From: Ruminococcus albus 7 = DSM 20455
Lineage (GTDB): Bacteria; Bacillota; Clostridia; Oscillospirales; Ruminococcaceae
NCBI RefSeq assembly: GCF_000179635.2
Contig: NC_014825.1
Location: 150,001 to 182,000 of the forward strand
Direction: 5' to 3'
Length of the DNA: 32,000 nt
Part shown: positions 1 to 17,510 of the stretch, piece after piece
Layout of the letters: the number at the start of each line of letters is the position of its first letter
Numbering within the stretch: position 1 is the stretch's first letter
Position numbers and translations under genes: made by a program
The notes under the pieces: generated by a model
Databases searched by the model: none
The model's input: only the letters and a program-made list of their open reading frames with translations
What the model was told of the DNA's origin: nothing

Positions 1-3000
1 TACCCATCAGGCAGTACAACGGCTGAACAGAACGCATATAAACTGATGATGTGGAATCTTAAACAGTATGCCAGTTCCGGTATTCAGTCATATTTTACGT
101 CTTCAAATAATGCAACAGAGCCCCTGACAGGTGATTTTGATTTATCAAAAGTATCTTATTATCCAATTAATAGAGCATCATCTGATGTTAGTATAGGTGC
201 GGCTAGTTTTACTTTCAATAATAAGAATATAGAAGATTCTGTTGTTGCAGGAACTACCTACCGCTCAACAGTTAGTAATAATTCCCAGCATTATTTGATG
301 CATTCCGGATTATTTAATAATGTTACTAGTAATTTAAGTATAGGTGATAATATCACATTGTCTGGTAGTATTGGTAAACATGAAAATGGGTCAGGTGCTA
401 TAGTTACCGGCACTTTAGGCGGACTTACGGAAGGAACAACTTCGTTTTCCAATACAACAGGAAAGCTAATAACCTTAAACGGATTAACTGTCAATGCTGC
501 TGATAACTATACTCCTGAAGGGGAATCGAGTGCGGTTACTACTTATAAACCGGTTCTGATAAACAGAATCAATAATCACGTTTCATTATCTCTTAATGGA
601 GTAAAAACAGCTGCTAATAGCTATGTTGCTACTGGCGGCGGTGTTAATACTGCGGGTTCAAGTTTGATAGGAACGGTTGGTACAAGAGATGGAGATAATA
701 AAGCCACCTCAGATTCAATCAGTTTAACATTTAATGATATAAGACTTGATGCGAGAACAGATTCAAACAAGAGTGTGGAGGCATTATCGGGTCTTTCAAC
801 AGCCTATGGAACTACTCAAGGTGTATTTACAAGAGCTACTCTTTTAGAAGAGTTTATCTTTAATAACAATAGCGACTGTAAAGGAGTGTATAATTATAGA
901 CTTTCCGAGGACTGGAATAGTTCCACAAAAGCAGCCATTCATAATGTAACTTACGGTTATGAAATAACCGGAACAAGTGAATTTGTAGGTATGCAGGATC
1001 ACTATGTAGACTTGCTGGGAAAGACTGACCCAACATCGTATGATAATACACAAGATGAAACAGAATATAGTTTTGCTGACTTTCTTCCTTATGTAGCTGT
1101 TCGAAATTATTCTGAGGCAAGTGATACACAGCGTTCAAGAGAAATAATGGTCAATCACACCAATGTTAGTATTACTGACGGCTGTGGCACGTATAATGAT
1201 CCTTATATAATTGATACTAATGGTCAGATAGAAGTTATTGCAAAGATTTTGGAACAAGGCGAAGTTAGTGATGGTTTTACTATCAATGTTCCTAATATTA
1301 CTGCTGTTTCGGGCACCAATTTCACTTATGAAACTTGGCATACCAACGATCACATTCTCTTAACGTTCAATAACGGCACCTATAAAGCGAGTACTGCAAC
1401 ATATAATCATACTACGGCACAGCTTGCAAAGTATCTTGCTGGTGCATATTATAAGATCACCAAGGTTGAAAAAGAGGGTGAAGATGATACTGTAACTTAT
1501 GAGAGTATTACAATAAGCAGCGCTTCGTTTAATGGTCTTGGCGGTACCTCTAATGAGTATGCTTTTCATGGCGTAATAGTAGGAGATACTGATACTGCAA
1601 CATATCCTCTTGTCAATAATACCGGTTCTCCGCTTATCAAAACAAGCCATGGTAGTGTTGTGAAAGATTTGAATATTAATGTCAGAAATGAGAATATCTC
1701 TAGAACACAGGAAAACAATACTCAGAAATTCGTAATTAGTGGTGGCTGCTCTAACTACGGAGCTGTTATCGGTCAGATTCTTGGTGGAGATAATATCATA
1801 GATAATGTTGCTGTAGATTTTACAGATTCAACCATTAAAGTTGAAGGTTCATCTGCAAATGTTATTCCGGTAGGCGGATATGTTGGTGTTGTAGCCAGCG
1901 GTGCCCTGATTTTCAGAGGAATGAACGGTAAAAACCATGCCGGACTTACAACAGGCATTGTTAAGGACGGTACAACAAGTATAGCTATGGATAGCACTGA
2001 TTGGCTTTATGTCAACCCAATTATTGGACGAGTCCTTAATGGCTATGCAGTTTATGAAGCAGGAACCAACAGTAGTAGTAATGATTATAAATATAGTGAA
2101 AGTAACGTTACTATGAAAAATGGTACAAAGAATTATTCTATTGCTGATATTGACCCTGACATTGACAAGGTTGAAGTTTCGGCCTATACGCAAAAAGGAA
2201 CAACAGGATATTACACGACTAATGTAACCATTCCTAATGCTCAGTCGCTTTATGTACTTTCGCTATTAATGCAAAGCAGAACTATAGGTAATGATAAATA
2301 TGGTACTGCACTTAAAGTGTTAAATAGTGATAGCTATGATTCAACAGTTAAACAGGCAATGCATCATGGAAAATATGACAAAGTCGGCACGGCTGATAAC
2401 AGCGATTATAATTCCTATGCTAAATATGATACTGTTGGTGTAGACACGGTAAATGGCATTAAGTATGCTCCTTATATTGTTGAAAGATATACAAGTGCAG
2501 TCGGTGAAAAGTATTATGTATTATCTCTTACAAACAATAAAACCGTTTGCAATATGACTCTTACAGGAAGCGACGCTGACTGGTATTTACCTGATGGATT
2601 TAAGGGAGTTGGGTACATCGGTTACGATAAATCCACATCCGATGGAATTAGTCTTCATAAATTCAACGGTAATGAGAAAACTATTCATTTGAATATGTCC
2701 TTGAACCATTACTCTGATAGTACAGATAACTACTGTCCAAGTAGTGGTAATGTAGGTTTTGGTCTCTTTAGTTCGATTAAGCATAATTCACAGGCGCAGG
2801 GAGGTGCTGTAACAGCTGATAATCTTGAAACAGATGATTACAAAATTAAGAACCTTAATTTAACAGGTACTATTGACTATAATGTAGCTGATGTTACAGA
2901 ATATAGTTCTTCAAATGTTTATAAGGATAAATACATAGATGTTGGTGGATTTGCAGGTTATTGTGGATACAGTGAGGCAAATGATTTAAGAATAGAAGGC

Positions 3001-6000
3001 ATAGATCTTTCAGGGCTTACTATCAATGGGTTTAAAACTGCCGGCGGCTTGTTCGGCTATCTGAAAATGGCAGCAAGTAATGTGTATTTAGCCAAAATAT
3101 CAAATATAACAGCTTCAAATGGCACTTTGACTGTCACTTCCAAAGATTATGTTGGAGGTATTGTGGGACGATGTGAACAAATTGGCTTAACTATTGACAG
3201 TTTGACTCTTGATAACCTTAGTATTGTTTCCTACTTTTATGAAACAGGCACTATTACATATAATAATGGAGCTGGTGGTATTATCGGTTGGGCAGCAAAT
3301 GCTTCAACTAATCAACCAATAACGCTGAGTAATATAACTGTAGGTAGTAGTACAGCAATATCTAATCTTCGTATAGGATACCCTAATAAAGCACCATATA
3401 CTAATACTAACAATGTCGATAATTATTATCAGATTGCTGTAGGTGGACTTGTTGGCAGGAGCATGACAAATAAGAACAGCAGTTATAGTTATTCGATGAT
3501 AATAGAGCATTGCTATGTTTACAATGTTGATTTTTATGGTCATAGAGTTGCGGGGATTATTGGACATGATGCAGCTGGTTCAGGTAAGACAGCATCTGGA
3601 TCCTATTTGCTGATGTCAGATGTCCATGTTGTAAGTAGTAATAGCGCATCGATTAATGGAATCAAAAAGTTGTCAAACCTAGGTGATAGAGGTTGTGGCG
3701 GATTAGTTGGTGTTATGTGGAACGATAAGAATAAAGATTTTATTGATTGTAGTGTTGAGGGTTATACGTTACGTTCTTATAATGATACTGGTGGAATTTC
3801 ATCAAATATGCAAACTGGAGGAACTGTAACAATAAAAAATTTCAAAGCTACAGATTTGAATATCTATTCTAATTATCATGGCTCATTATTTGGATATTTA
3901 AAATGTACTACAAATGGATATAACATACTACTTGATAACATTCAGTTCAATAATTATGTTGATGAGGAAGGGGTAGTTCATAAGCATAGTAATGGATATA
4001 TCGAAAAAAAATACGGTTATTTGGTCGGTAATAATGGCGGCTGTGTAATTAAACTTGTAGGTTTAACAAGACAACACTTAGAAAATACAGCTCATGATCA
4101 CCTGAACAGAATTGTTGGAGCTAAAAACTCCGACTCAAATTACAATTATGGTTCAGGCGGGTATATTATCTTTGCTGACACTCTTGGAAAAAGCACAACT
4201 ACAGCAACTGCTGGAACCAAGCAATCTGATTTGTCAGATAAAACAAATGTCACAGCGAAGTCACCGTGGGTAACTGTAAGCCCAAGTATCAACATTAGCG
4301 GAACAGAAGCAGATAGCACTCAGGTATTGACAGGCGACAGTATTATGTCAAATTACCTTGCTGCGGATACTCTGAGCAATTACAATGGTGTTGATACAGC
4401 TGGTATTATTTCCTCACTTGCTGATGTAAATTCAACTGCCAAAACGAATTACGCAGGCTTTAGAGATGCTCAACTATTCTCAACCTATGAGGACGAAATG
4501 GGTGATGGTTCTCTGCCTGAAGGAGTCTCAAACTTTGCTGTAATTGCGGTTGATAATAACGGATTAAGAGATGATTTAAATACCGCAATAAATAGTTATG
4601 TTCAGATGCTTACGCATACAACAGATGTTTATTCTCGAACAAATAATAATGGGAATGTATATAAGGTTCAAATTTACAGATGTACTTATGACTCAACTGA
4701 GCAAGTATTCGTAAAGACTGCCAGCAGTGATGGATTAACTAGAGATACTAATGGTTTTTACCCTTCTGTTGAACACCCTGATACTGATGCAGATACAGCG
4801 TGCTTTACTTTGGTTGACATTCAGTTCTTGAACCCGAGCAATTCTAACGAAGTCGCATATCATGTATATGTACCGGTACTCATAAAGAAATTATTGAAGT
4901 TTAATTTCAAGGCTTCTTCTTTGCCGGGTACGGTATATGATTATACTAACTATGTTTACAAAACTTCATCACACACAACGGAGGATAAATGGGGAACACC
5001 AAGTGTTACTAATCTCGGAACACCGGTCACCATGTATTTCCGTTATGATTACACTTCAAATGTAAGTGAGTGGCAGGAGATGATTAACAATGGCGAAAGT
5101 TTGATGTGGCATACTAACAACAAGCTGCAATTAAAGACTGCTGCAAGTAATCTTCCGTTCAATACAAGAATGGTTTTGGTCGATGCAAATAATAACGATA
5201 GAGCGTATTTTGCTAAGGCAAGCGACACGGGAGTTTTTACTAAAAATACCAACTCTGATCAAAATGATTATTTTGTTGATCTTACCAAGTTTAAAAACGG
5301 TTCTGATTATTTTGCGGCAAAGAATTTTGGAGAGAGGCTGCTAATTTCAGCCAGTACGACATCATCGTCAGCAGCTACTAAGGCCTATGTAATATCGGCT
5401 GCTGGTGAATCGGTATATGTAACTGCAACAATTGGAAGTGAAACAACTCGCTCCAACTTTAGACCCGCAACGGACGCTGAAATATCGGATAGTTCAAAAA
5501 CCAAGTATTACTTAACAGTTGATGGAGTAACTTCTTTACCTCCGGCTGGATTAACGGAAAGCTATTACATTACTTTCTTTACAGATACGGCAGATGATCC
5601 GCTAAGAGTAATTATAGGTGGTTCTGCGCCTTCGCTTTCCTCATCTCCTCAGAATTCGGAGATTAGCAAACATACTTTGAAATGCACAAATCAAACTGAA
5701 TCTGCATTGATTTTAGGAAATATTTTCAAGCAAGAATTTACAAAGTTTGAAACGGAAAATGCTCAAAGTGGTTTGGTGAATAACAGCTGTGATTATTTTG
5801 AAGCTGACATAACTGTAAAAATCTCAGTTAACAACGATAATGATGAGGCTGAAACGATAATTAGGTATTTGAATAATGATTCAATTGAAGTGTACCATAG
5901 TATTCTGTTGGGATTAACGAAGAATGATGGTACCACCGTTGAAAACACTATTTATGGAACACCTACTTATACTGTAAATACGGCTAAAGCAGCGTCAGGG

Positions 6001-6981
6001 ATTTATGGAACTATATCTTCAACATTTTCCGATAGTGCTGTTGATATATCTGGATTCAGTATTCCGTCACCAAACAATACATCTAGTTTTATTCAAATTG
6101 GTGATTTGGATTATAATATTAAGCCGCTTTTAGTTGAAAAAATCGGATCAACATATGGAGGTGCAATAATATCTGTCAATGGTTTACGAGTTCATTTTGA
6201 CTATCTGAATATTCCTAACCAATTTCCCTATCAACCCAGTACTGTGGAAGGACAAAACACCGTAGGCACAACTGTCAAAGCATATTCGACCTTAGATTCA
6301 GATTATACTAATATAGCTTACAGCAGTATAAGAGAAGAAATGGCTGATTCTAATGCAGTAAAGTATCATAGCGAGACCCCCTCATCAGCAACGCTTGTTT
6401 ACGTTGTTGATACTAGTGATGATATAGATATTGTAAAGAATTATAATATGCTTGGCATAAACCCAATAGATGAGGCTGAATATTTCAATAATATTATAAC
6501 TGCTGACGGAACATATAATGCGGTTTCATTTGTTGATTCAGCTCAAGCCGGTAAGATTAGATGGACTCTTTCTTTAGAAAAGAAGAATGAATCCGGTGCT
6601 TATGAAACTGTAAAAATGTCTGATTATGTTTCTGGAAATGTTACTGTTGGTAATCGAACTTCTGGCGCTGTATTTTCGGCTTCTGGTAATACGTTTATTT
6701 ATGATGAAGATTATACAACGCCAATGGACATTACAAAACTTACAACCATTTATGCAATGAAAACCGGAGATGATCTTGAAGCTCTTGTTGACGGTGACGG
6801 GAATCCTGTTACTGGTGTATATGCAAATTACAAGGTAACATTGTCAGCTACATTATATACAGGTTCGGAAGCATTGTCTGGAGATTTAAGTAGCCGAAAA
6901 ATCGATAATTCAACTGTTTCTGATTACATTAAGTATACAAATGCTAAGGTTAAATCAAGTTGGGTTAATCCTAGCAATTAG
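1..6981 (+). CDS. Giant secreted/cell-surface protein, 5' end outside the window (>=2326 codons here), with a central GLUG-like parallel beta-helix repeat region
   Basis: The frame-1 ORF is open from nt 1 (no stop before the first ATG at 46) to the TAG at 6979-6981. Composition is N/T/S/G/Y-rich. A lead-in 'GCGTYNDPYIIDTNGQIEVIAKIL' is followed by many G-G-hydrophobic-hydrophobic-G turns (GGYVGVVASG, GGFAGYCGY, GGLFGYLKM, GGIVGRCEQ, GGIIGWAAN, GGLVGRSMTN, AGIIGHDAAG, GGLVGVMWND), as in GLUG-motif adhesin-like proteins. No LPXTG, dockerin-like or SLH-like C-terminus was seen. Confidence 0.8.
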   Translation, partial: YPSGSTTAEQNAYKLMMWNLKQYASSGIQSYFTSSNNATEPLTGDFDLSKVSYYPINRASSDVSIGAASFTFNNKNIEDSVVAGTTYRSTVSNNSQHYLMHSGLFNNVTSNLSIGDNITLSGSIGKHENGSGAIVTGTLGGLTEGTTSFSNTTGKLITLNGLTVNAADNYTPEGESSAVTTYKPVLINRINNHVSLSLNGVKTAANSYVATGGGVNTAGSSLIGTVGTRDGDNKATSDSISLTFNDIRLDARTDSNKSVEALSGLSTAYGTTQGVFTRATLLEEFIFNNNSDCKGVYNYRLSEDWNSSTKAAIHNVTYGYEITGTSEFVGMQDHYVDLLGKTDPTSYDNTQDETEYSFADFLPYVAVRNYSEASDTQRSREIMVNHTNVSITDGCGTYNDPYIIDTNGQIEVIAKILEQGEVSDGFTINVPNITAVSGTNFTYETWHTNDHILLTFNNGTYKASTATYNHTTAQLAKYLAGAYYKITKVEKEGEDDTVTYESITISSASFNGLGGTSNEYAFHGVIVGDTDTATYPLVNNTGSPLIKTSHGSVVKDLNINVRNENISRTQENNTQKFVISGGCSNYGAVIGQILGGDNIIDNVAVDFTDSTIKVEGSSANVIPVGGYVGVVASGALIFRGMNGKNHAGLTTGIVKDGTTSIAMDSTDWLYVNPIIGRVLNGYAVYEAGTNSSSNDYKYSESNVTMKNGTKNYSIADIDPDIDKVEVSAYTQKGTTGYYTTNVTIPNAQSLYVLSLLMQSRTIGNDKYGTALKVLNSDSYDSTVKQAMHHGKYDKVGTADNSDYNSYAKYDTVGVDTVNGIKYAPYIVERYTSAVGEKYYVLSLTNNKTVCNMTLTGSDADWYLPDGFKGVGYIGYDKSTSDGISLHKFNGNEKTIHLNMSLNHYSDSTDNYCPSSGNVGFGLFSSIKHNSQAQGGAVTADNLETDDYKIKNLNLTGTIDYNVADVTEYSSSNVYKDKYIDVGGFAGYCGYSEANDLRIEGIDLSGLTINGFKTAGGLFGYLKMAASNVYLAKISNITASNGTLTVTSKDYVGGIVGRCEQIGLTIDSLTLDNLSIVSYFYETGTITYNNGAGGIIGWAANASTNQPITLSNITVGSSTAISNLRIGYPNKAPYTNTNNVDNYYQIAVGGLVGRSMTNKNSSYSYSMIIEHCYVYNVDFYGHRVAGIIGHDAAGSGKTASGSYLLMSDVHVVSSNSASINGIKKLSNLGDRGCGGLVGVMWNDKNKDFIDCSVEGYTLRSYNDTGGISSNMQTGGTVTIKNFKATDLNIYSNYHGSLFGYLKCTTNGYNILLDNIQFNNYVDEEGVVHKHSNGYIEKKYGYLVGNNGGCVIKLVGLTRQHLENTAHDHLNRIVGAKNSDSNYNYGSGGYIIFADTLGKSTTTATAGTKQSDLSDKTNVTAKSPWVTVSPSINISGTEADSTQVLTGDSIMSNYLAADTLSNYNGVDTAGIISSLADVNSTAKTNYAGFRDAQLFSTYEDEMGDGSLPEGVSNFAVIAVDNNGLRDDLNTAINSYVQMLTHTTDVYSRTNNNGNVYKVQIYRCTYDSTEQVFVKTASSDGLTRDTNGFYPSVEHPDTDADTACFTLVDIQFLNPSNSNEVAYHVYVPVLIKKLLKFNFKASSLPGTVYDYTNYVYKTSSHTTEDKWGTPSVTNLGTPVTMYFRYDYTSNVSEWQEMINNGESLMWHTNNKLQLKTAASNLPFNTRMVLVDANNNDRAYFAKASDTGVFTKNTNSDQNDYFVDLTKFKNGSDYFAAKNFGERLLISASTTSSSAATKAYVISAAGESVYVTATIGSETTRSNFRPATDAEISDSSKTKYYLTVDGVTSLPPAGLTESYYITFFTDTADDPLRVIIGGSAPSLSSSPQNSEISKHTLKCTNQTESALILGNIFKQEFTKFETENAQSGLVNNSCDYFEADITVKISVNNDNDEAETIIRYLNNDSIEVYHSILLGLTKNDGTTVENTIYGTPTYTVNTAKAASGIYGTISSTFSDSAVDISGFSIPSPNNTSSFIQIGDLDYNIKPLLVEKIGSTYGGAIISVNGLRVHFDYLNIPNQFPYQPSTVEGQNTVGTTVKAYSTLDSDYTNIAYSSIREEMADSNAVKYHSETPSSATLVYVVDTSDDIDIVKNYNMLGINPIDEAEYFNNIITADGTYNAVSFVDSAQAGKIRWTLSLEKKNESGAYETVKMSDYVSGNVTVGNRTSGAVFSASGNTFIYDEDYTTPMDITKLTTIYAMKTGDDLEALVDGDGNPVTGVYANYKVTLSATLYTGSEALSGDLSSRKIDNSTVSDYIKYTNAKVKSSWVNPSN

Positions 6982-7084: not shown

Positions 7085-7128
7085 GTGAGCCAAAGGAATC
7101 CCAATTTCCGCGGCTCACTTTCATTTTT
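7085..7128 (+). terminator. Possible rho-independent terminator of the giant gene
   Basis: Stem GTGAGCC (7085-7091) pairs with GGCTCAC (7112-7118) and is followed by TTTCATTTTT. The 20-nt loop is long, so this is only moderately convincing. Confidence 0.45.
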
Positions 7129-7372
7129 CCTTGAAAAACATCTTTGCCCCTCTTGCAATCAAGTCTGTTTTAGTGTATAATAGTAAGAGAAGAACAATGA
7201 AGCAGTCGCTATGTGCAAACAAAACAGTTGACAAACTCCTTGCAAAAAAGTTGACCACGAAATTCGTGTATTTTGAACGGTTTAATATATTCGCAACCAT
7301 GTAAAAAAGAAAGAAAAAGAAATAGTAATTGGCTGTTAGAAATGACAGAAACGGAATGAAGGGTAAAAACAA

Positions 7373-7813
7373 ATGCTGAACATTATATTTGGTGAGTATG
7401 CAGGTGTAGTCACAAACCCTGCCGTGTACTTTAAAAACACTTATGAAGACGAATGGATCACAGATGAATTGTCTCGAAAAATGATTCAGGCTGTTGACCA
7501 TTCAACCGTCATCAGTGAACGAGTTATCGAAAGCCCTGTTCTTGGTGCGATTACTCCTAAAGAACTTTCGGGCGGCGTAAAAACTCTTATTCTTATCAAC
7601 AATTGTCCGGACAAGATTTTCAACGCATCTGCTTGTGGTGATAACTGTGCCGAGTGGCTGCTTGAGATTGGTCAAGAAAAGGATATAACGATCAATCTGC
7701 GTCACATCATGGACTTTGGTGAGGGCAACTTTGATATTCACATTCAGAATACAGATCAGATAGTTCACAGCATGAAGGAGCTTATTCCGATTGCCGGAAT
7801 GATCGTGAGGTGA
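7373..7813 (+). CDS. Small (146 aa) protein resembling the C-terminal half of an ABC-type nucleotide-binding domain (signature motif only); possibly DUF4869-like
   Basis: 'LSGGVKTLILINNCPDKIFNASACGDN...ITINLRH' is collinear with ABC signature LSGG, helix, degenerate Walker B, D-loop-like and H-loop His. No Walker A is present. The stop lies 4 nt before the next ATG. The DUF4869 assignment comes from memory of similar ~150-aa proteins and is unverified. Confidence 0.7.
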   Translation: MLNIIFGEYAGVVTNPAVYFKNTYEDEWITDELSRKMIQAVDHSTVISERVIESPVLGAITPKELSGGVKTLILINNCPDKIFNASACGDNCAEWLLEIGQEKDITINLRHIMDFGEGNFDIHIQNTDQIVHSMKELIPIAGMIVR

Positions 7814-7817
7814 GCGC

Positions 7818-8798
7818 ATGAAGGGCAGTTATACAATCAGGGTCGGCAACAGCAGGCTCAGATACGAGTTCACTATTTGTAGGAACATTACTATTCTCAA
7901 GGGCAACAGCGCTACCGGAAAGACCACACTTGTCGAGATGATAAGGGAGTACTATGAGGACGGAGAACTAAGCGGTATTCAGCTTGAATCAAGTGTACCG
8001 TGCAGAACACTATCGGGGCGTGACTGGAAGTACATTCTGCCTGCGATAGAGAATAGTATCGTGTTTATTGATGAAGATAACGATTTTCTGAGAACGCTGG
8101 AATTTGCCGAAGCAATACGCCACAGCTCAAATTATTATGTGATTGTCACAAGAGAGGGTCTTGCGTATCTTCCTTACAGCGTGAATGAGATATACGGCAT
8201 AAGGGAATCTGGCAAATATGCAGGGCTAAAACAAGTCTATAATGAGTTTTACCGTATATATCATTGGGTAAGCGAGATAGAAAAATCCAACATTGTCAAA
8301 GTGGTTGTTGAAGACACTAACTCAGGCTATGAATTCTTTTCGGCACTTGCTGCTGACGGTCAGCCGATTGTTATTAGCGCTGAGGGTAATTCGGGAGTGT
8401 TTAAAAAGCTCCTTGGTCGTGACCCTTCGGAAACGTGTCTTGTCATTGCTGACGGGGCAGCCTTTGGCTCGGAAATCGACAGAGTGATGAAGCTGATACA
8501 TGACGCAGATAATGTTATTTTGTATCTTCCCGAGTCGTTTGAATGGCTGATCCTGAAGTCCGGATTGATAGACGGAACTCGCATACAAGAGATGCTTGCA
8601 AATCCTGAAAACTATATTCTCAGTGACAAGTATTTCAGTTGGGAACAGTATTTTACTGCACTGCTCATTGATGAAACCAAAGATACTTTTCTTAGCTACT
8701 CTAAGAAGAAACTAAATCCCGTGTATCTGCATGAGATCGAAAAAAGCAAAATTGTAAACGCTATGGATAAGATAGGAGAACTGTTTTCTGATAACTAA
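7818..8798 (+). CDS. P-loop ATPase (326 aa) with a C-terminal Toprim/DUF4435-like domain ('mini-OLD'-like)
   Basis: Walker A is 'GNSATGKTT' and Walker B is 'SIVFIDEDNDF', followed by 'YYVIVTRE'. No ABC signature motif is present. The C-terminal half has 'VVVEDTNSGYEFF', 'ISAEGNSGVF' and 'CLVIADGAAFGSEID', resembling Toprim Glu and acidic-strand motifs. The Toprim call is inference from motifs only. Confidence 0.7.
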   Translation: MKGSYTIRVGNSRLRYEFTICRNITILKGNSATGKTTLVEMIREYYEDGELSGIQLESSVPCRTLSGRDWKYILPAIENSIVFIDEDNDFLRTLEFAEAIRHSSNYYVIVTREGLAYLPYSVNEIYGIRESGKYAGLKQVYNEFYRIYHWVSEIEKSNIVKVVVEDTNSGYEFFSALAADGQPIVISAEGNSGVFKKLLGRDPSETCLVIADGAAFGSEIDRVMKLIHDADNVILYLPESFEWLILKSGLIDGTRIQEMLANPENYILSDKYFSWEQYFTALLIDETKDTFLSYSKKKLNPVYLHEIEKSKIVNAMDKIGELFSDN

Positions 8799-9382
8799 AA
8801 TCGTAAGAAATGATAGGTTGCTGTTCAAGGTGAGTTTAGCGATGTTTGAACAAAACGGTTGACCAACTCCTTACAAAACAGATGACCTAAAATTGGATCA
8901 AATATTGCTGTTTCATATTTTTTTGGATATTATAAACCAAGCCATCCAAGAAGCTATGCGTAAGCAGAACATCTTTGTTTAAACAAAACAGTTGACATAC
9001 TGGATAATCGAGTGATTGAAGATAGAACATTCTGGTAATGATCAAAATCATAGTGTTCACGACTGCTTTTAATCCTACTCTATGTTCAGATTAATCATTA
9101 TGTATACAAAACAGTTGACGAACTCCTTACCAAAAAGTTGACCTAAAAACCAACTCGAAAAAGTCGATTCCAAATTTTTTATAGCCAAAGCCAATCTGTT
9201 CGTAGAGCGCAGGGGAGCTTTGACCATACGAAAAAGTTGACCGCCTGCATACAAAACAGTTGACAAATTTATTGCACAATAGTGCGTTGATAAAGTAACC
9301 GCCAACCAATCCCCCGAGCCGACACAGCCCACCCAATATGATATAATTACTCTGAAGGATAATACGCAAGCCGAAAGGAGTA

Positions 9383-9766
9383 ATGAACATGGGAAAAATA
9401 TCTGAGATCAAAATGCAGCTGAGGCATAAGGAATGGGCTGAAATGGTCAGCGAGTGCCAGGCGAGCGGCAAAAAGGTCGATGAGTGGTGCAGAGAGAACG
9501 GCATCAATGTCAGTACCTACTATAAACGTCTGAATGTGCTGAGAACCGAGCTTATCGAGGGCAGTGAGAAACAGAGCATAGTTCCCGTAAGTGTTTCCGC
9601 CTCTGTCTCGGTGCCACAGAACAAAGCTGTTTCAGATACCGGAAAGGAGCTCATTTCAGATTCCGGAAAGATAATAATACGCAAGGACGGCTTTGAAGTT
9701 GAGCTTTCCGGGGATACTTCCGAAGATATGCTTATGGCTCTGTTCAGAGGGCTGAAACAATGCTGA
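9383..9766 (+). CDS. tnpA: IS66 accessory protein TnpA (HTH)
   Basis: 'EWAEMVSECQASGKKVDEWCRENGINVSTYYKRL' is typical of IS66 orf1. AAAGGAG sits at 9374-9380, so the second ATG (9389) is the better-spaced start. The stop overlaps the tnpB start (ATGCTGA). Confidence 0.8.
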   Translation: MNMGKISEIKMQLRHKEWAEMVSECQASGKKVDEWCRENGINVSTYYKRLNVLRTELIEGSEKQSIVPVSVSASVSVPQNKAVSDTGKELISDSGKIIIRKDGFEVELSGDTSEDMLMALFRGLKQC

Positions 9767-10116
9767 AGGAACTTTCTGCTGCCAATATCTACATCGTCTG
9801 TGGGCATACCGATATGCGTAAATCAATAGACGGTCTTGCAGCGATAATCAGAGAGGAATTTGATCTCGATCTGTTTTCCGACAGCCTGTTTTTGTTTTGC
9901 GGAAGGCGCAGAGATCGACTAAAGGCTCTGCTGTGGGAGGGCGACGGATTTATCATGCTGTACAAAAGGCTTGAGAATGGAAAATTCAACTGGCCGCGCA
10001 ATGAGCAGGAGGTAAGAAACTTAAGCCACGAGCAGTTTGTATGGCTATTGCAGGGACTATCCGTTGACCAGCCAAAGGCGATAAAAACTATCGAGGGCGG
10101 CATCGATTTTTACTGA
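9760..10116 (+). CDS. tnpB: IS66 accessory protein TnpB
   Basis: 'GHTDMRKSIDGLAAII...LFLFCGRRRDRLKALLWEGDGFIMLYKRLENGKFNWP' is the canonical IS66 orf2 signature. Confidence 0.9.
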   Translation: MLKELSAANIYIVCGHTDMRKSIDGLAAIIREEFDLDLFSDSLFLFCGRRRDRLKALLWEGDGFIMLYKRLENGKFNWPRNEQEVRNLSHEQFVWLLQGLSVDQPKAIKTIEGGIDFY

Positions 10117-10179
10117 AAAACTGCACATATTTATCGATGAAATTTCTCTGAAATAATGACTTAAAAAGCGCTCTTTTCC

Positions 10180-10208
10180 TTGATTTTTCGGGCGTTTTGT
10201 GGTATAAT
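10180..10208 (+). promoter_or_regulatory. Sigma-A-type promoter for tnpC of IS66 no. 1
   Basis: TTGATT (10180-10185), 17-nt spacer, TGgTATAAT (extended -10, TATAAT at 10203-10208). AAGGAG is at 10241-10246 and the GTG start at 10255. Confidence 0.6.
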
Positions 10209-10411
10209 ATAAGTATCGCAAAGCACTGATTTTTCAAGGAAAGGAGCATTTTTTGTGACATATGAAGAACGTAAGCGTATAACCCCCAGCACCTACCCCA
10301 CCGAAGTCTAATAAAGTATAATAAACTCCAAGGAACACCATGAAGTAAATTGAATAATCCAAATTGATCCATGGAGTTCATTGGAGACGATTAGACAAGG
10401 AGGTAACAGGT

Positions 10412-10728
10412 ATGGACAAAACAACATCCATCACAACAATCAAAAAGAAATGCAGCTTCAGGAATGGTCTGCGCAGATCAAAGCACAGCAGGCAAGCGGT
10501 CTGACGATCCGGGAATGGTGCAAAGAAAAAGGGATCAAGCCAAACACGTATTACAACCGCCTAAGAAAAGTTCGTGAAAAGTATATCGAAAATTCTCCGA
10601 CCATCGTTCCTGTATCAGTTCCTTGCTCAAACGAAAATATCCGCATTGAGAAAAACGGACTTCAAATATCTCTTCCGGCAGATATATCTGCGGACACTCT
10701 GACCGCTTTGGTGCATGAGCTATGCTGA
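10412..10728 (+). CDS. tnpA: IS66 TnpA of element no. 2, probably frameshifted near its 5' end
   Basis: AAGGAGG (10397-10403) is well spaced for ATG 10412, which reads MDKTTSITTIKK. The conserved body (MQLQEWSAQIKAQQASGLTIREWCKEKGIKPNTYYNRL) is in another frame, with its in-frame ATG at 10450. The switch maps to the A5 run at 10442-10446. Confidence 0.65.
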
Positions 10729-11077
10729 ATGATCTGGCAGCGGACGCACAGGTCTATCTTGTTACGGGATACACCGACCTTCGACGCGGGATAGACGGAC
10801 TTGCGACTATCGTTCAGGCTCAGCTTCGACTTGACCCGTTCTCGAAAGCATTGTTTTGTTCTGCGGCAGACGTTGTGACCGCATCAAAGGTCTGCTGTGG
10901 GAGGGCGATGGTTTTCTGCTGTTGTACAAGCGCCTTGACAACGGAAGATTCCAGTGGCCGCGCAGTGAGACCGAAGCAGTAATGCTCACATCTCAGCAAA
11001 TTCGCTGGCTTCTGGAAGGCTTGAAAATAGAGCAGCCGAAGGCTATCCGTGAGGGAAAGCCGGGGGCGCTGTATTAA
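10722..11077 (+). pseudogene. tnpB: IS66 TnpB of element no. 2, frameshifted
   Basis: ORFs 10722-10982 and 10856-11077 together give '...DPFSKALF / FCGRRCDRIKGLLWEGDGFLLLYKRLDNGRFQWP'. Compared with element no. 1 (LFLFCGRR), one T is missing in the T run at 10854-10857. Confidence 0.8.
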
Positions 11078-11109
11078 GGCAATACTTACCGAATATTCAG
11101 AATATGTGC

Positions 11110-11138
11110 TTGAAAAGCCCCTCTTTTCGTGGTATCAT
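11110..11138 (+). promoter_or_regulatory. Sigma-A-type promoter for tnpC of IS66 no. 2
   Basis: TTGAAA (11110-11115), 17-nt spacer, TGgTATCAT (11133-11138). The position and surrounding sequence (CTCTTTTC...TGGTAT.AT.AAGTATC) are conserved with element no. 1. GGAGG lies upstream of ATG 11170. Confidence 0.55.
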
Positions 11139-11169
11139 TAAAGTATCATAACGAACGGAGGGGTGCTTT

Positions 11170-12681
11170 ATGTCCGAACCAAATATGACATCGGAAATTG
11201 TATCGCTCCGTAATGAAAACGCTGTTCTCAAGGAAGAACTAGCACTTGCCAATCAGCAGTTAGCGTGGTTCAGAAAGCAGATATTCGGAAGAAAAACAGA
11301 GCAGACATCTGTTGTTATGGAAAAGGAGTTCGGTGTTCAGCTTTCCATGTTCGGAAACAATGAAGAAAAATCCGCAGCTAAATCTGCCGAAACAATTACT
11401 GTTCCCGAACACAAGCGCAAGAAAAAACGCACTCACGATGAATGGATGAACAATCTGCCTGTAAAAGAAGAACATCACAAAATTGACAACCCGGTATGCG
11501 AAATATGCGGCGCCGAAATGGAAGAACTGACTCCCGAAAAGGCTTACGATGAACTTATATTTACGCCGCCAAAATATCATATCCGCAGGCATATAGTACA
11601 TAAGTACAAGTGTCCCGAGTGCGGAGAAAAGCCCGAAGAAAGGGACGAACCTTGTCATATCATCCGTGCGCCATATCCTCACGCTATGATCCCGGGAAGC
11701 TATTGCTCTCCCGAACTTCTGGCTCATATCATCTACGAAAAATATGCAAAGTCAGTACCTCTGCACCGTCAGGAAAAGGACTTTAATTCCAAAAACATAC
11801 CTCTGCTCAAAGCGACTATGTCTAATTGGGTAGGCACTGCTGCCGAAAAATGGTGTTTGCCGATTGTGGAGAAAATGCATGAGATGCTTATCGCAGGGCA
11901 GATGATCCATGCCGATGAAACGACCGTTCAGGTGCTTCACGAGGAAGGCCGAAAGCCTACCACGACATCAAGAATGTGGGTCTACTGCAACGGCAAAATG
12001 AATGACAGGAGCATCATCATTTTCGATTATCAGCCGACACGAAAGGGTGAGCACGCCTCGAATTTCCTGAAAGGATTTATCGGCTATCTTATCTGTGACG
12101 GATACGATGCCTACAATGCAGTCGAGGGTGCTAAGCGATGCGGCTGTATGACTCATGCAAGGCGTGGTTTTATTCAGGCTCTTCCGAACGACCAAAAGCT
12201 GCACAGCACTTCTGTTGCGGCAAAGGCAGTAGAATATTTCAACAAGATATATCACGAAGAAAATCTGCTTGCCGACAGCTCCACAGAATACAGATATAAA
12301 CAGCGCCTTGTGAAGGTAAAGCCTTTGCTTGACGAGTTTTTTGCGTGGCTTGAAAATGTTCAGGTCAGTGGTAAGGGCAAGCTGACAGATGCAGTAAGAT
12401 ATGCGTTGAATGAACGGAAATATCTTTACACGTTTCTTGAAAACGGAGACGTGCCTATCGACAACAACAGAGCCGAAAACGCAATAAGACCGTTTGCGTT
12501 AGGCCGAAAAAATTGGCTGTTTTCAAATACAGCAAACGGAGCCAGATCAAGTGCAACGCTGTATTCGATCATTTCAACTGCACAGGCGAACGGTGTTGAT
12601 GCTGAGAAATACCTGACCGAGCTGTTTTCACAGCCTGCGGGAACGATATTATTACCATGGAGGGAAGAAAATGAAACTTAG
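11170..12681 (+). CDS. tnpC: IS66-family DDE transposase TnpC (intact, 503 aa)
   Basis: N-terminal coiled coil plus 'IFGRKTEQ', zinc-finger 'CEICGAEM...CPECGE', 'HADETTVQVL', 'LICDGYDAYN', 'MTHARRGF' and 'IDNNRAENAIRPFALGRKNWLFS'. Confidence 0.93.
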   Translation: MSEPNMTSEIVSLRNENAVLKEELALANQQLAWFRKQIFGRKTEQTSVVMEKEFGVQLSMFGNNEEKSAAKSAETITVPEHKRKKKRTHDEWMNNLPVKEEHHKIDNPVCEICGAEMEELTPEKAYDELIFTPPKYHIRRHIVHKYKCPECGEKPEERDEPCHIIRAPYPHAMIPGSYCSPELLAHIIYEKYAKSVPLHRQEKDFNSKNIPLLKATMSNWVGTAAEKWCLPIVEKMHEMLIAGQMIHADETTVQVLHEEGRKPTTTSRMWVYCNGKMNDRSIIIFDYQPTRKGEHASNFLKGFIGYLICDGYDAYNAVEGAKRCGCMTHARRGFIQALPNDQKLHSTSVAAKAVEYFNKIYHEENLLADSSTEYRYKQRLVKVKPLLDEFFAWLENVQVSGKGKLTDAVRYALNERKYLYTFLENGDVPIDNNRAENAIRPFALGRKNWLFSNTANGARSSATLYSIISTAQANGVDAEKYLTELFSQPAGTILLPWREENET

Positions 12682-13210
12682 TAATGAAGATGCAAAGCTG
12701 TTTTATGAACTGTTTTTTCCACTGCTTGACTATGTGAACAGAGAATATCATATACTTCCTGAGGAAGATTATTTCGGGCAAGGAATGATCGACCCACAGG
12801 ATGCTGCGGAGGTTGCCCACTTTTTATGGGAACGGACATGGATCATTGATGATTATCTTGAGCGATCGGATCTGCCCGAATAACACATGGAGATACTTAA
12901 AAGCTGGAAAGGGTGCATCACCGGCAGATTTATCATTGAGCGACATTTGAAAAAGGGATCGGTATTTATATCGATCGATGACAATTCTGTTTTTCTTGTA
13001 AACGGCATTGTCAGCAGTTGGGAGGAAATGCTGAGAAATGCACCGATGCCAACTTTGCTTGATGCAGCGCTTCTGCCATTTAAAAATGCGATCATTTCCG
13101 ATGGCCTTGTATCTGTTATGCCGATCATATTCGGTCCGAACAGCAAAGCTGATTTCAAAGAAATATACATGGACGCAAAGAGAAATGGAGAAATCAAAGC
13201 CAGAATATGA
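12671..13210 (+). pseudogene. Passenger ORF of IS66 no. 2 (unknown function), one reading frame interrupted by an in-frame TAA
   Basis: ORFs 12671-12883 and 12887-13210 are in the same frame, separated only by TAA at 12881-12883 ('...SDLPE*HMEILKSWKG...'). The start overlaps the tnpC stop by 11 nt. It lies inside the right IR and is followed by a terminator. Confidence 0.6.
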
Positions 13211-13215
13211 TGTTA

Positions 13216-13249
13216 CAGCCGGGTGTTATCTGCCCGGCTGTTTGCTTTT
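13216..13249 (+). terminator. Rho-independent terminator just inside the right IR of IS66 no. 2
   Basis: CAGCCGGG (13216-13223) pairs with CCCGGCTG (13233-13240), followed by TTTGCTTTT. Confidence 0.7.
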
Positions 13250-13274
13250 ATGATGCGGGGGGTTATACGCTTAC

Positions 13275-14914
13275 TGAAGAACTGAAAAAAGCATACGAAG
13301 AAATGTCAAAAAAGTGCGCTTTGCTTGAAAAAGAAAACGAGAAAAAAGATGAGACCATAGAGCATCTTGAAGAACTTCTTCTGAAAAGAAACAAGATGCT
13401 TTTCGGGCGTAAAAGCGAGAAGTCAAAATATTTGCAGTGTGACGGTCAGGAGAGCTTTGAAGGCGTGTTCAACGAAGCCGAAATGCTTTCCGATGAAGCT
13501 GCGGAAGAACCGACAGAGGAAACCATCGTTGTAAAAAGAAAGTCCCAAAAGACCGGTGAACACCGCGGCAAAAATAAGCTCAGAGAAGATCTTCCCAAAG
13601 AGAAGATCGTATCGAAGCTGCCCGAAAAACAAGTGTAACTGTGCTGTTTGCGGCAGTAAGCTCAAGGTCATCAAGGAAGAATTTCTGACAAGCAAACTTG
13701 TGTATATCCCCGAACAGCTGAAAATGCGTGAGTTTTACAGAACGGTGTACAAGTGTGAATGCTGCGATAAAAAGGGCGAGGATCCCCATATCGTCAAATC
13801 CGAAAACCCTACTCCCGCACAGGTCATACCGAAGGGTCTGCCGGATCAAACGCTTGTTGCGGATATAATGCAGAGAAAATATCAGCTTGGTACTCCGCTT
13901 GACCGTCAGGAAAAATACTGGGCGGCACAGGGGGTATATCTCAGCCGTACTTCAATGGCAAACTGGGTGATCGAGGGTTCAAAATGGTTTGAGCCTGTTA
14001 TTGATATGCTCTGGAAATATTCGTATAAAGAGCCTGTCCTGAATGCCGATGAAACGACGTCGAGAACTTTGAAAACCGATAAAGGCAAAAAAATAGACAA
14101 GCTGGGTCAGATGTGGATATGCTCGACAGGCAGAGCCGCAAAGAAAAAAATTGCAATATACGAGTACCGTGACAGTCGCACAAAGGCTGTTGCCGAGGAG
14201 CTTTACTATGGCTATACGGGCATATTGCAGACTGACGGATTTCAGTCCTATGGCAGCGGCAGCTACACGAGAGTCGGCTGCTGGTCGCATGCACGCAGGA
14301 AGCTGATCGACTGCATACCCGAAAAGCACAAAAAGAGCAAAGCGGCGATCGCTGTGGGTATGATCGACAAGATGTTCAAATACGAACGGGAGGCGAGAAA
14401 GGAAGACTATTCGGACGAACAGCTGCTTGAGATGCGTCGGGAAAAGATCGCCCCTCTTGTAGATGAGTTCTACAAATTCATAGACAGCCTTCACCCCGGC
14501 AATGGTTCACACTTAGCCGAGGCGGTTAATTATGCCCGAAATCAGAAAGCAGCACTGACTGTTTTCCTAAATAATCCACTTGTGGATATGAGCAACAATC
14601 TTGCAGAGAGAACAGTCAAGCCTTATATTATTGCAAGGAAGAATTTTCTTTTCAGCTGTACCGAGAAGGGTGCTCACGCAAGCGCGGCGGTTATGACAAT
14701 TATCGAGACAGCTAAGCGAAATGGTCTTGATGTGTACGGGTATCTCCTGCATCTGCTGACAGAGCTGCCGAAGTACGGTCATACTCCGACAAGGGAACAG
14801 CTTGAAGCTCTGATGCCGTGGAGCGACAGCCTGCCTGATTTCTGCAAGAAAAAGTATAGTCAGGTAGAGTCAGTTACAATACCGGAAATGAGTCTATGCA
14901 AAGCAAAGGTGTAG
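13275..14914 (+). pseudogene. tnpC: IS66 TnpC of element no. 1, split by IS66 no. 2 and additionally frameshifted
   Basis: The first 5 codons (GTG ACA TAT GAA GAA) are at 10255-10269. Removing 10271-13282 restores VTYEELKKAYEEMSKKCALLEKENE...LFGRKSEKS. A second lesion gives 'LPEKQV*' versus '..PKNKCNCAVCGSKL', with the frame change at the A5 run 13625-13629. Downstream motifs are intact (NADETTSRTL, LQTDGFQSY, CWSHARRK, MSNNLAERTVKPYIIARKNFLFS). Confidence 0.88.
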
Positions 14915-14958
14915 TAAGGTGCAGTCAGGTATAGTGGTTTCCAGCATATGATATACAG

Positions 14959-14990
14959 AAGAGCCGTGTCAGTCAGCACGGCTCTTTTTG
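14959..14990 (+). terminator. Rho-independent terminator just inside the right IR of IS66 no. 1
   Basis: AAGAGCCGTG (14959-14968) pairs with CACGGCTCTT (14977-14986), followed by a T run. Confidence 0.75.
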
Positions 14991-15279
14991 GTGGGAATAA
15001 TTTTGGGGGTGGATTGGTTGGCGGTTACAGATCTTCGTATGCGTTGACTATCTTCCAAGATGTCTTTGTTTTCGGAACGACTTTTTCCGCAAAATATGCC
15101 TCGATAGGCAGTCCCGCTTTCTGACTCTCTCTGACGGTCTTTGAGTACGGTATCACTGTTGGGGATGTGCGCACTGAAACAGCTTATTTCACCAGTTAAT
15201 ATGTTTTTTACTCTGATGTTCGGATATGGTTAGAGGGTGCTGCGGTTGCAACACCCTCATTTTTAAAGGAGGACTTATC

Positions 15280-15350
15280 ATGAAAAAAGTCGCAGTAATA
15301 TGGTCGAGCCCGAATAAAAACGGTCTGACTGCATCTGCAAAAGAACAGAT
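15280..15350 (+). pseudogene. 5' fragment (~24 codons) of a flavodoxin-like / NAD(P)H-dependent FMN reductase-like gene, truncated by IS21
   Basis: AAAGGAGG then ATG 15280; 'MKKVAVIWSSPNKNGLTASAKEQI' resembles the N-terminal beta1/phosphate-loop of flavodoxin-fold reductases. The reading frame runs straight into the IS21 terminal repeat at 15351. Confidence 0.35.
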
Positions 15351-15459
15351 TGTATATGCCGACCCCAAAACCGCAGCTGCACGGACTCGGAACCGCACTC
15401 TCACGCATTTTGAACCGCATCGTGCCGCGATAGAACCGCATCGACATATTTAACGTATC

Positions 15460-15493
15460 AAAAATGGAGCCCGCCTGAACTCAGACAGGCTCC
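15460..15493 (-). terminator. Terminator after the IS21 gene set
   Basis: On the minus strand GGAGCC..CAGG pairs with CCTG..GGCTCC (15466-15493), followed by ATTTTT. Confidence 0.55.
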
Positions 15494-15506
15494 CCGTTAA
15501 AGTTGA

Positions 15507-15704
15507 TCAGATTTCCGGATAGTCTATCTCATTCTCATCAAGAATAGCCTTGAGCCGGTCGATATACTCATACAGCCGCTGGATCTCTATCCAGTTGCCG
15601 TGACACAAGTGTTCGGCTTCCGCAAGCTCGTGACGGGTGAGCAGATAATCCTCCCATTTCAAGCACTTGTGATCCTTGCTGAAAGCACAGTAATTCTCCA
15701 TCAC
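15507..15704 (-). CDS. Small 65-aa ORF downstream of istB, inside the IS21 boundaries (unknown function)
   Basis: Its ATG overlaps the istB stop (ATGA at 15701-15704). It is followed by a terminator, and all of this lies inside the terminal repeat. The sequence is acidic with Cys/His residues (C6, H12, C14, H33, C34, H35). Confidence 0.5.
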
Positions 15705-17478: not shown

Positions 17479-17510
17479 TGGATCAATCATAGAAAGGAGG
17501 AATTATCATC

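Follow-up and report, generated by a model that had tools for sequence, protein, structure and literature searches.

The 32,000-nucleotide (nt) stretch of Ruminococcus albus DNA analysed here (contig NC_014825.1, positions 150,001 to 182,000; hereafter the window) raises the question of how a protein that carries the signature motif of an ATP-binding cassette (ABC) ATPase, and no P-loop, might work together with a neighbor that carries the Walker A and Walker B motifs. The two proteins are encoded on the forward strand by open reading frames (ORFs) of 146 amino acids (aa; 7373-7813) and 326 aa (7818-8798), with 4 nt between them, and each has a 100% match in R. albus, the source of the window. 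An earlier reading of the sequence (the original prediction) took them for a miniaturized, asymmetric version of the OLD, Gabija, and PARIS systems, in which one ATP site formed in trans would gate a Toprim nuclease, the whole being part of a mobile defense or addiction cassette. Here we describe the two genes as an obligate, coupled pair, assign the small protein to DUF4869 (Pfam PF16163), and argue that the complementary loss of motifs makes a single ATP site formed in trans a reasonable model, as judged from the sequences; both this mechanism and the conflict role proposed for the pair are inferred.

An obligate pair of genes

The distribution of the pair was surveyed by scanning one genome per species; among about 185,000 species representatives, at least 537 carry the large gene. 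A DUF4869 gene adjoins it in every one of the 80 loci retrieved, and in 78 of them the small gene immediately precedes the large gene, in the same orientation and 0-94 nt away; in one locus (L079) the gene order is reversed. When five different small proteins were taken as starting points instead, the large gene or what remains of it was in every case the neighbor of the small gene. Furthermore, the pairwise identities of the two proteins across 70 species are correlated (r 0.81; Mantel test, 0/999), indicating co-divergence, and the ratios of non-synonymous to synonymous substitution (dN/dS) of 0.065 for the small and 0.068 for the large gene, calculated against a relative with 87-90% identity, indicate purifying selection on both. 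No third conserved gene accompanies the pair in the 80 loci, the next largest cluster (19/80) being generic ABC transporters. The small and large genes are thus an obligate pair, which upholds the coupling described in the original prediction.

Carriers of the pair belong to Lachnospiraceae, Oscillospiraceae, Erysipelotrichaceae, Negativicutes, and Treponema, a patchy distribution that crosses phyla; for Collinsella, only a short weak match (71% over 146 nt) to an annotated DUF4869 gene was obtained. DUF4869 itself comprises more than 7,000 clusters at 90% identity, no mention of DUF4869 or PF16163 was found in the searchable literature, and PADLOC-DB v2 holds no model for the small protein or for the C-terminal domain of the large protein. 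Sampling via the small protein covered 23 places, and in 7 of them the intact small gene has a large gene with a frameshift or truncation beside it or has lost its large gene altogether; this count is biased, since the look-up by its design selects intact small genes and a single lineage contributed five of the seven cases. Among such loci (L097-L102 and L115), the large gene is frameshifted or split into pieces of 137+245 aa or 174+84 aa, shortened to 205 or 138 aa, or, in L115, missing, and the pair occurs as a tandem duplicate in L098 and L100. Among about 390 listed homologs, neither a true fusion of the two genes nor an unsplit intermediate was found. Two candidates for a natural fusion, which might have served as evidence of interaction, were rejected: P0014 turned out to be an internal duplication, and P0219 (231 aa, 46 member sequences), in which a full DUF4869 continues in frame into an internal piece of the large protein that begins near aa 90 and lacks Walker A, is probably a deletion product. 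In a Mitsuokella metagenome-assembled genome (L061, 8634-9950), an ORF of 438 aa lies between the small and large genes; it contains an HNH motif (HHITPRK...CPACH), its N-terminal region is rich in Arg, and from its sequence it looks like an IscB-like mobile nuclease inserted in the operon.

DUF4869 as a putative ABC-head look-alike

The small protein matches the Pfam profile of DUF4869 with 198.4 bits (cutoff 28.9; E-value 4.2e-59) over profile positions 2-128 of 128, and PF16163 is carried by 120 of 120 listed homologs, so that the family name tentatively given in the original prediction proved to be right. The label of a signature-only mini-protein is likewise accurate: a motif scan found no GxxxxGK[ST] in the small protein, the remnant of its P-loop is G7 alone, and its Walker-B acids are changed to Ala and Ser, while LSGG is invariant. 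Residues that do not vary in 44 homologs of DUF4869 are S54-P-V-L-G58, E64-L-S-G-G68-x-K-T-L72, F83, S86, and C88-G-D-N-C92, followed by T106, N108-L-R-H111, and H132.

An AlphaFold2 (AF2) model of the small protein, built with the 44 homologs, has a predicted local distance difference test score (pLDDT) of 94.5 and a predicted template modeling score (pTM) of 0.88, and it places LSGG at the N-terminus of helix 67-77, followed by strand 81-84, which is the layout expected of an ABC protein. When this model was compared with the PDB by Foldseek, more than 40 of the top 50 matches were ABC, SMC, or Rad50-type heads or Csn2. The best match is the YydI-containing structure 9a5y_B (E-value 2.4e-3, probability 0.85), the SMC head of T. 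maritima (1e69) matches with a probability of 0.93 and a TMq of 0.45, and others include the nucleotide-binding domains of P-glycoprotein, MsbA, and energy-coupling factor (ECF) transporters, PtuA, AriA (8v46_B), Rad50, and cohesin; the best of these matches have probabilities of 0.85-0.93, with template modeling (TM) scores of 0.37-0.45. Searches of PADLOC, NCBIfam, and PHROGs gave no match to the small protein, and sequence and profile searches against the PDB gave only noise. The predicted fold and the invariant motifs suggest that DUF4869 is a stripped-down, catalytically dead look-alike of the ABC nucleotide-binding domain that has retained the signature and, next to it, the D-loop-like CGDNC and H-loop-like NLRH. 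The invariant C88, C92, H111, and H132 (nt 7634-7648, 7703-7705, and 7766-7768) ring the former Walker-B/D-loop/H-loop center, and it may be speculated that they form a structural or regulatory metal site.

A compact ATPase joined to a C-terminal alpha/beta domain

In the large protein, a compact P-loop ATPase domain is fused to a C-terminal alpha/beta domain of an unrecognized family. The AF2 model orders the N-terminal domain as a beta-hairpin (5-10, 15-20), strand 24-28, Walker A (29-37), a helix, two short strands, helix 70-76, the Walker-B strand (81-85), helices, and strand 106-111, which ends in T-R112-E113. Across 66 members that are 32-50% identical to the large protein of the window, K35, E86, R112, D166, D212, E239, E242, and E276 are invariant. 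All motifs quoted in the original prediction for the two proteins are present where it placed them and reflect constraint across the families, not chance, except that the Glu of ISAEGNSG is not conserved. Its description of the large protein as having Walker A and Walker B holds, but its statement that a signature is missing needs qualification, as an LSG is found 20 residues ahead of Walker B, the place of an ABC signature, though it is not conserved in the family.

The best Pfam matches of the ATPase domain (aa 22-111, spanning Walker A to the strand that follows Walker B) are to AAA_14, nSTAND3, and AAA_22. AAA_14 (PF13173) reaches 25.4 bits on the window protein against a gathering threshold of 27, is matched at E<=1 by 51 of 51 relatives (best 9.3e-9), and some of the relatives have a precomputed PF13173 annotation. 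Weaker N-terminal matches are of ABC type (AAA_23, AAA_29, SMC_N, ABC_tran, and AAA_15), and AAA_15 is found in 10 of the 66 members with E-values of at least 5e-4, compared with 7e-28 for phage P2 Old. PADLOC matches that recur among 51 members are LmuB (51), PtuA (44), AriA (38), ATPase-Toprim_I-B (11), and GajA (4), all of them weak and located at about aa 14-50, corresponding to the N-termini of ABC/SMC-type defense ATPases; the AriA models cover aa 17-50 only (E-value 0.0065, best in the family 3.6e-4) and the GajA models the P-loop region only (E-value at least 0.011). Sequence and profile searches against the PDB, with shallow as well as deep profiles, returned P-loop matches only. The class of the ATPase is therefore not settled by its sequence and does not appear clearly ABC, in departure from the ABC-type ATPase originally predicted. 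Scans of Pfam and NCBIfam found no IF2 or other translational GTPase family in the large protein, and the name "translation initiation factor 2" that it bears in NCBI and UniRef (P0001/P0036 and others) is a propagated annotation error, no IF2 domain being detectable; PHROGs and NCBIfam scans were uninformative on the pair.

The linker that follows the ATPase (aa 117-153) is among the most conserved stretches of the family, yet disordered in the AF2 model of the monomer. Its near-invariance combined with this disorder suggests a candidate partner- or ligand-dependent element, which would perhaps fold only when a partner or ligand is bound. The C-terminal domain is predicted to consist of four beta-alpha units and a helical bundle, and its invariant or near-invariant residues are E165-D166-x-N-x-G170, G190, A211-D212-G-A-A-F-G217, P238-E239-S-F-E242-W, W275-E276, Y294, and K296. 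A search with this domain gave 969 representative clusters (50% identity, E<=1e-3), the best 150 of which all have the same architecture of about 320 aa or are fragments of it. The invariant acids cap parallel strands at their C-terminal ends, as they would in a divalent-metal phosphoesterase or nuclease, and a metal-dependent nuclease or phosphoesterase is the most likely identity of the domain according to the model.

Homology of this domain to Toprim, OLD, or DUF4435, on which the idea of a "mini-OLD" had depended, is not demonstrated; Pfam, PADLOC, hhalign, and Foldseek gave no significant support for it, and what stands is an alpha/beta domain with conserved strand-end acids. The domain had no Pfam, PADLOC, or PDB match. 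OLD-like_TOPRIM (PF20469) was matched by 2 of 51 full-length members (E-value 0.054) and does not figure in the list of 25 families obtained with the 66 divergent members, PADLOC gave no AriB match and no match to the C-terminal part of GajA, and Pfam scans gave no DUF4435. The best PDB fold matches of the large model are the IIA-Man protein of the phosphotransferase system (PTS), a resolvase catalytic domain, a designed 2x2 Rossmann fold, and a response regulator (E-values 0.03-0.6, none significant), and the top match in BFVD is a Catovirus "ATP-dependent endonuclease" with OLD-type naming (E-value 1.5e-3, probability 0.18, TM 0.16). The old gene product of phage P2, whose Pfam make-up of AAA_15 and OLD-like_TOPRIM was confirmed, served as the OLD reference. 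The deep profile of the large family aligned by hhalign with the single P2 Old sequence over 220 columns (E-value 6e-4, probability 28%). In the run against an Old profile, Walker B falls on Walker B, TRE on THS, E165 on the Toprim Glu, and D212 on the first Asp of DxD, a register that is biologically sensible but without statistical significance, and the Toprim register differs between the two runs. The Toprim DxD would be cut to one Asp in this domain (D212 of ADGAAFG). IIA-Man, resolvase, and Toprim have a common 2-1-3-4 strand order in SCOP. The C-terminal domain is thus compatible with a Toprim-like topology and metal site.

A possible split ATP site and its alternatives

The losses of motifs in the two proteins are complementary, as the large protein has Walker A, Walker B, and R112 and no conserved signature, and the small protein has the signature and neither the P-loop lysine nor the Walker-B acids. 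The spacing of the motifs is also alike, with 19 residues from the signature to the Walker-B position in the small and 20 in the large protein, and 27 in both from the Walker-B to the H-loop position. It is on the ground of this complementarity that a single ATP site in trans is proposed. The two proteins would form an asymmetric head-to-tail heterodimer, its single composite ATP site would consist of the P-loop of the large protein and the LSGG of the small protein, and ATP binding or hydrolysis at this site would switch the C-terminal effector domain. Patchy lateral spread, two-gene autonomy, decay of the putative effector gene, and the weak affinity of the N-terminal region to defense ATPases led us to propose that the pair is a conflict module, acting in phage or plasmid defense or in addiction by a logic like that of OLD, Gabija, and PARIS. 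We tentatively favor this account of an asymmetric heterodimer whose one composite ATP site gates a metal-dependent effector in defense or addiction, and rate its chance as somewhat short of even.

A number of results weigh against it. Every fold match of the small protein has an E-value above 1e-3, each being weak singly though their class is consistent; hhalign detected no similarity of the small protein to the Old family with either shallow or deeper profiles and none between the small and the large protein, and the order of secondary structure that the small protein and the large N-terminal domain have in common is that of most P-loop cores. The large ATPase is by sequence closest to AAA_14, nSTAND3, and AAA_22, not ABC, and is of the compact ASCE (additional strand, catalytic E) type with only 50 residues from Walker A to Walker B, and in compact ATPases of the AAA_14 or STAND kind a signature motif given in trans is not the usual partner element. 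On the side of the effector, the proposed function derives from the geometry of acids and not from homology, which is a weakness: a Pfam search of ten diverse isolated C-terminal domains at E<=10 found nothing relevant, the top 50 Foldseek matches of the large model in the PDB include no OLD, GajA, AriB, DnaG, or topoisomerase, and hhalign against a 48-member Old profile gave a probability of 1% (E-value 0.05). Furthermore, the spacing of D166-D212-S240 (46, 28) is near that of CheY D13-D57-T87 (44, 30), and weak receiver-type matches to the domain were obtained by Foldseek and by a PDB profile search. As for the conflict role, the neighbors of the pair in other genomes are mostly housekeeping genes (tRNA synthetases, NrdD, citrate synthase, Mrp antiporter, bacterial microcompartment shell proteins, sporulation genes, and Dtd), and the 140 immediate neighbors hold few defense genes (PglZ x2, specificity genes of type I restriction-modification x2, and mad3 x2), which does not look like the defense-island context that the original prediction anticipated. 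The pair is rare on plasmids (2 weak matches) and in phage records (5 unannotated fecal "Bacteriophage sp." contigs), occurs in 4 of the 2.9 million viral contigs of IMG/VR, and is highly conserved for a defense gene (mean identity across 70 species, 61% for the small and 53% for the large protein).

Part of this evidence would fit a different partnership, in which DUF4869 is a regulator, adaptor, or antitoxin that binds outside the ATP site, for example at aa 117-153, and restrains a toxic ATPase-effector, LSGG then serving another purpose such as binding of a phosphate ligand. Speaking for it are the translational coupling of a small first gene to the larger effector gene behind it, the conserved stretch of the large protein that is not folded by itself, scattered single-copy insertion amid housekeeping genes, which is typical of toxin-antitoxin modules, breakage or loss of the large gene beside an intact small gene, and the closeness of the ATPase to AAA_14/STAND and not ABC. 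The precise complementarity of motifs and the invariance of LSGG, CGDNC, and NLRH are hard to explain if the site is not used, however, the count of damaged large genes (7/23) carries the bias described above, and a Pfam scan found no antitoxin-type DNA-binding domain in DUF4869, so that we regard this account as doubtful. It is unlikely, in our estimate, that the pair is an accessory housekeeping factor outside any conflict, either an ATPase of nucleic-acid repair or processing or a nucleotide switch with a receiver-like C-terminal domain. Neighbors that are overwhelmingly housekeeping and stable within lineages, strong purifying selection with unusually high conservation, near absence from phages, plasmids, and viral contigs, the CheY-like spacing with its weak receiver-type matches, and one lineage in which the pair is operonic with Tpt1/KptA and adjoins Dtd are what such a factor would lead one to expect, but the pair is scattered patchily across several phyla, its synteny is not conserved from one lineage to the next, pseudogenes are found as well as deletions and tandem duplicates, there are no conserved functional partner genes, and E239, E242, and E276 are more invariant acids than a receiver domain needs.

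A closer kinship with known systems than the split-site account assumes would make the large protein a true miniaturized member of the OLD/GajA/AriAB lineage, an ABC ATPase with a homologous Toprim or DUF4435 domain whose signature half was split off as DUF4869. Matches of the N-terminal hairpin and P-loop to ABC-type defense ATPases (among them ATPase-Toprim_I-B and GajA), the two members with OLD-like_TOPRIM, the 220-column alignment with P2 Old, the Catovirus endonuclease as best BFVD match, and the strand order that the top generic folds (IIA-Man and resolvase) have in common with Toprim all point that way. Against these stand the result with the Old profile, the shift of the Toprim register between runs, the failure of Pfam to match any of the ten isolated C-terminal domains, the lack of AriB or DUF4435 matches, the absence of OLD, GajA, and AriB structures from the top 50 fold matches, the reduction of DxD to a single Asp, and the lack of profile similarity between DUF4869 and the Old ATPase. 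In addition, the signature half comes first in the gene order and no unsplit intermediate is found among the listed homologs, and we therefore hold this descent to be very unlikely.

The favored account of a trans-formed site can be carried further, to a split-site switch in which a pseudo-ATPase donates only the signature to an ATPase of about 115 residues that gates an unrecognized metal-dependent nuclease domain, as a new class of defense or addiction system that is widespread in gut and rumen Firmicutes and has spread laterally to spirochetes, Negativicutes, and Actinomycetota; in this full form it is a bold proposal with a rather small chance of being right. If the split-site model is true, the pair would represent the smallest ABC-like ATP sandwich known and take asymmetric-site evolution to an extreme, and the ATPase-nuclease conflict systems of the human and ruminant gut microbiome would gain a system and an effector domain that are both new. 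If it is wrong, the obligate pairing would still be the first functional anchor for DUF4869, by tying its work to this ATPase, and would mark residues for mutagenesis. In either case the module is large, gut-associated, and unstudied, its C-terminal domain has no Pfam model, and the public name of the large protein is wrong.

Comparison with known systems

The pair is not a demonstrable member of OLD, Gabija, or PARIS, and DUF4869 is the one family membership that was established. Like OLD and GajA, the large protein starts with a P-loop ATPase whose N-terminal hairpin is ABC-like and continues, within one chain, into an alpha/beta domain with conserved strand-end acids; the size class and an ATPase that controls a metal-dependent effector are plausible parallels, and weak matches point in the same direction. 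In contrast to OLD and GajA, the large protein is about half the size (326 aa versus 586 aa), separates Walker A from Walker B by only 50 residues, lacks a helical or dimerization insert as well as a conserved signature in the chain, shows no significant Toprim similarity with one Asp in place of DxD, and needs a separate DUF4869 partner, which neither of them has. Gabija differs also in its partner, as no GajB-like (UvrD-like) helicase partner was found in the 80 loci. PARIS, too, is a module of two genes, which pairs an ABC-like protein with one that bears a putative nuclease, the two presumably acting as a complex. The P-loop region of the large protein is weakly matched by AriA models, and AriA (8v46_B) is among the fold matches of the small protein. 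However, the live ATPase and the putative effector are fused here, with a dead ABC-like remnant as the separate protein, and the pair has no AriB or DUF4435 match.

Asymmetric ABC heterodimers with one degenerate site are known from EcfA/EcfA', TM287/288, TAP1/2, and CFTR. They are the closest analogs of the proposed mechanism, which would carry their pattern to an extreme, as OLD/GajA and PARIS are the closest in function. They have in common with the present pair the complementary degeneration that leaves one of two composite sites catalytic, and EcfA-A' (4hlu) is among the fold matches of the small protein, but their domains are full-size and both bind nucleotide, whereas here the domains comprise about 115-146 residues, one partner has no P-loop, and membership of the active partner in the ABC class is unproven. 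Csn2 of type II-A CRISPR, a small ABC-head-like protein with no ATPase motifs, sets a precedent for a dead scaffold of this kind, and its structures (3v7f, 3toc, 3qhq, and 3s5u) match the fold of DUF4869; unlike DUF4869, which has an invariant LSGG and is always paired with an ATPase gene, Csn2 has no signature and is a DNA-end-binding tetramer of CRISPR loci. AAA_14 (PF13173)/DUF4143-type and STAND ATPases provide the best Pfam matches of the large protein (aa 22-111, 51/51 members), but the window protein stays below the cutoff (25.4 versus 27 bits), has no DUF4143 domain, and has an N-terminal hairpin and a C-terminal domain that lie outside that family.

Transcription unit and genomic context

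The terminator, predicted promoter, and leader that precede the pair (Table 1) make it a transcription unit of its own, an autonomous operon of two genes that are translationally coupled. The terminator of the upstream gene, whose stem was matched in stability by 0 of 200 shuffles in a folding test and is conserved in close relatives, isolates the pair from the upstream transcription unit. The predicted promoter, identified by its resemblance to the sigma-70 consensus, is identical in the window and three relatives, while its flanking sequence has diverged. No Rfam family was found in the leader at E<=1, and the idea of a riboswitch or other RNA was dropped.

Table 1. Coordinates of the gene pair, its motifs, and its flanking signals in the window.
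Feature	Residues (aa)	Position (nt)	Strand	Basis or remark
Intrinsic terminator of upstream giant gene		7085..7129 (stem 7085-7118 + T-run)	+	-17 kcal/mol, z -4.35
Predicted sigma-70-type promoter, TTGCAA-17 nt-TATAAT		7153..7181	+	Consensus scan 10/12; TG ahead of -10 hexamer
Leader, about 190 nt		7182..7372	+	Holds repeat unit 7208-7256 and ribosome-binding site GAAGGG (7358-7363)
Upstream repeat copy in leader		7208..7256	+	14-nt cores ACAAAACAGTTGAC / GCAAAAAAGTTGAC 23 nt apart
Small gene, DUF4869 protein, putative degenerate ABC-head-like	146 aa	7373..7813	+	Pfam PF16163, AF2, Foldseek, invariant motifs, dN/dS
Small protein, signature LSGG	65-68	7565-7576	+	
Small protein, KIFNAS	81-86	7613-7630	+	Dead Walker-B position
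Small protein, CGDNC	88-92	7634-7648	+	D-loop-like
Small protein, ITINLRH	105-111	7685-7705	+	H-loop-like, contains NLRH
Ribosome-binding site of large gene, GAGG		7807-7810	+	Inside last codons of small gene
Stop codon of small gene, TGA		7811-7813	+	
Spacer between small and large genes, GCGC		7814-7817	+	
Large gene, compact P-loop ATPase fused to C-terminal alpha/beta domain of unrecognized family	326 aa	7818..8798	+	
ATPase domain	1-116	7818..8165	+	AF2 secondary structure, invariant residues, weak Pfam
Walker A, GNSATGKTT (K35)	29-37	7902-7928	+	
LSG	65-67	8010-8018	+	Non-conserved
Walker B in IVFIDED (D85, E86)	81-87	8058-8075 (Walker B)	+	
TRE (R112)		8148-8156	+	H-loop or sensor position
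Conserved linker (LPYSVxEIYGIRESGKY...YNEFY)	117-153	8166..8276	+	Near-invariant, AF2 pLDDT 29-37
C-terminal domain, four beta-alpha units then helical bundle	155-326	8280..8795	+	AF2 pLDDT 80-95
VVVEDTNSG	162-170		+	String quoted in original prediction
E165/D166		8310-8315	+	Invariant strand-end acids
ISAEGNSG	186-193		+	Glu not conserved; family consensus SAxGKSN
LVIADGAAFGSEID	208-221		+	String quoted in original prediction
D212 in ADGAAFG		8448-8468	+	Invariant strand-end acid
E239/E242 in PESFEW		8529-8546	+	Invariant acids
W275-E276		8640-8645	+	Invariant
Downstream repeat copies 8839-8887, 8973-9001, 9095-9143, 9217-9288		8839..9288	+	Between pair and IS66-type genes

To the left of the pair lies a giant ORF (46-6981, forward strand) of 2,311 aa, which has 3,688 aa in relatives (L103, 1-5608), is rich in Asn, Ser, Thr, and Gly, and has no Pfam match on record. 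Only in the R. albus lineage is it conserved as the left neighbor of the pair, and it probably belongs to the surface or adhesin-type proteins. The mobile stretch downstream (9383-20414) starts with an insertion sequence (IS) 66-type orf1-like ORF and TnpB (9760-10116) and continues with two IS66 DDE transposases (11170-12681 and 13556-14914), IS21 IstB (15701-16468, reverse strand) with an IstA fragment (16465-17370, reverse strand), and a tyrosine recombinase (17511-18743), which is followed by the overlapping ORFs 18740-19720 and 19713-20414 that may complete a recombinase trio. A 49-nt direct repeat with the core ACAAAACAGTTGAC, mostly present as two cores set 23 nt apart and always on the forward strand, brackets the pair, with one copy in the leader and four or five downstream. 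Nine copies of the 14-nt core are found in the window, all within 7219-9264, compared with 0.48 expected. In close relatives (L103-L107; small protein 95% identical), the giant gene likewise lies to the left and the pair is flanked by a single repeat copy on either side. The repeat does not occur in any of the 102 other loci, which restricts it to the R. albus lineage. From its sequence, the repeat could be an operator array or a cassette boundary.

The repeats and IS debris noticed in the original prediction are real, IS66, IS21, and integrase genes lying downstream, though the repeats are peculiar to this lineage, and the accessory setting that had suggested a mobile defense cassette is specific to this genome. 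No integrase or transposase recurs beside the pair in other genomes, and mobility of a cassette as a general property of the pair was rejected on this account and that of the lineage-restricted repeats. No tRNA was found in the window and hence no tRNA integration site. A phage-borne nature of the pair was also rejected, given that the fecal phage and IMG/VR contigs already mentioned are its only viral occurrences. In one lineage, genes for an N6-methyltransferase and GmrSD lie 8-10 kb from the pair. In an Eubacterium/Lachnospiraceae lineage (L112, 8898-10987; also L113 and L114), a gene for the Tpt1/KptA RNA 2'-phosphotransferase (PF01885) ends at the start base of DUF4869 and appears to be operonic with the pair, with DUF3800 and DUF3781 genes just upstream and Dtd downstream.

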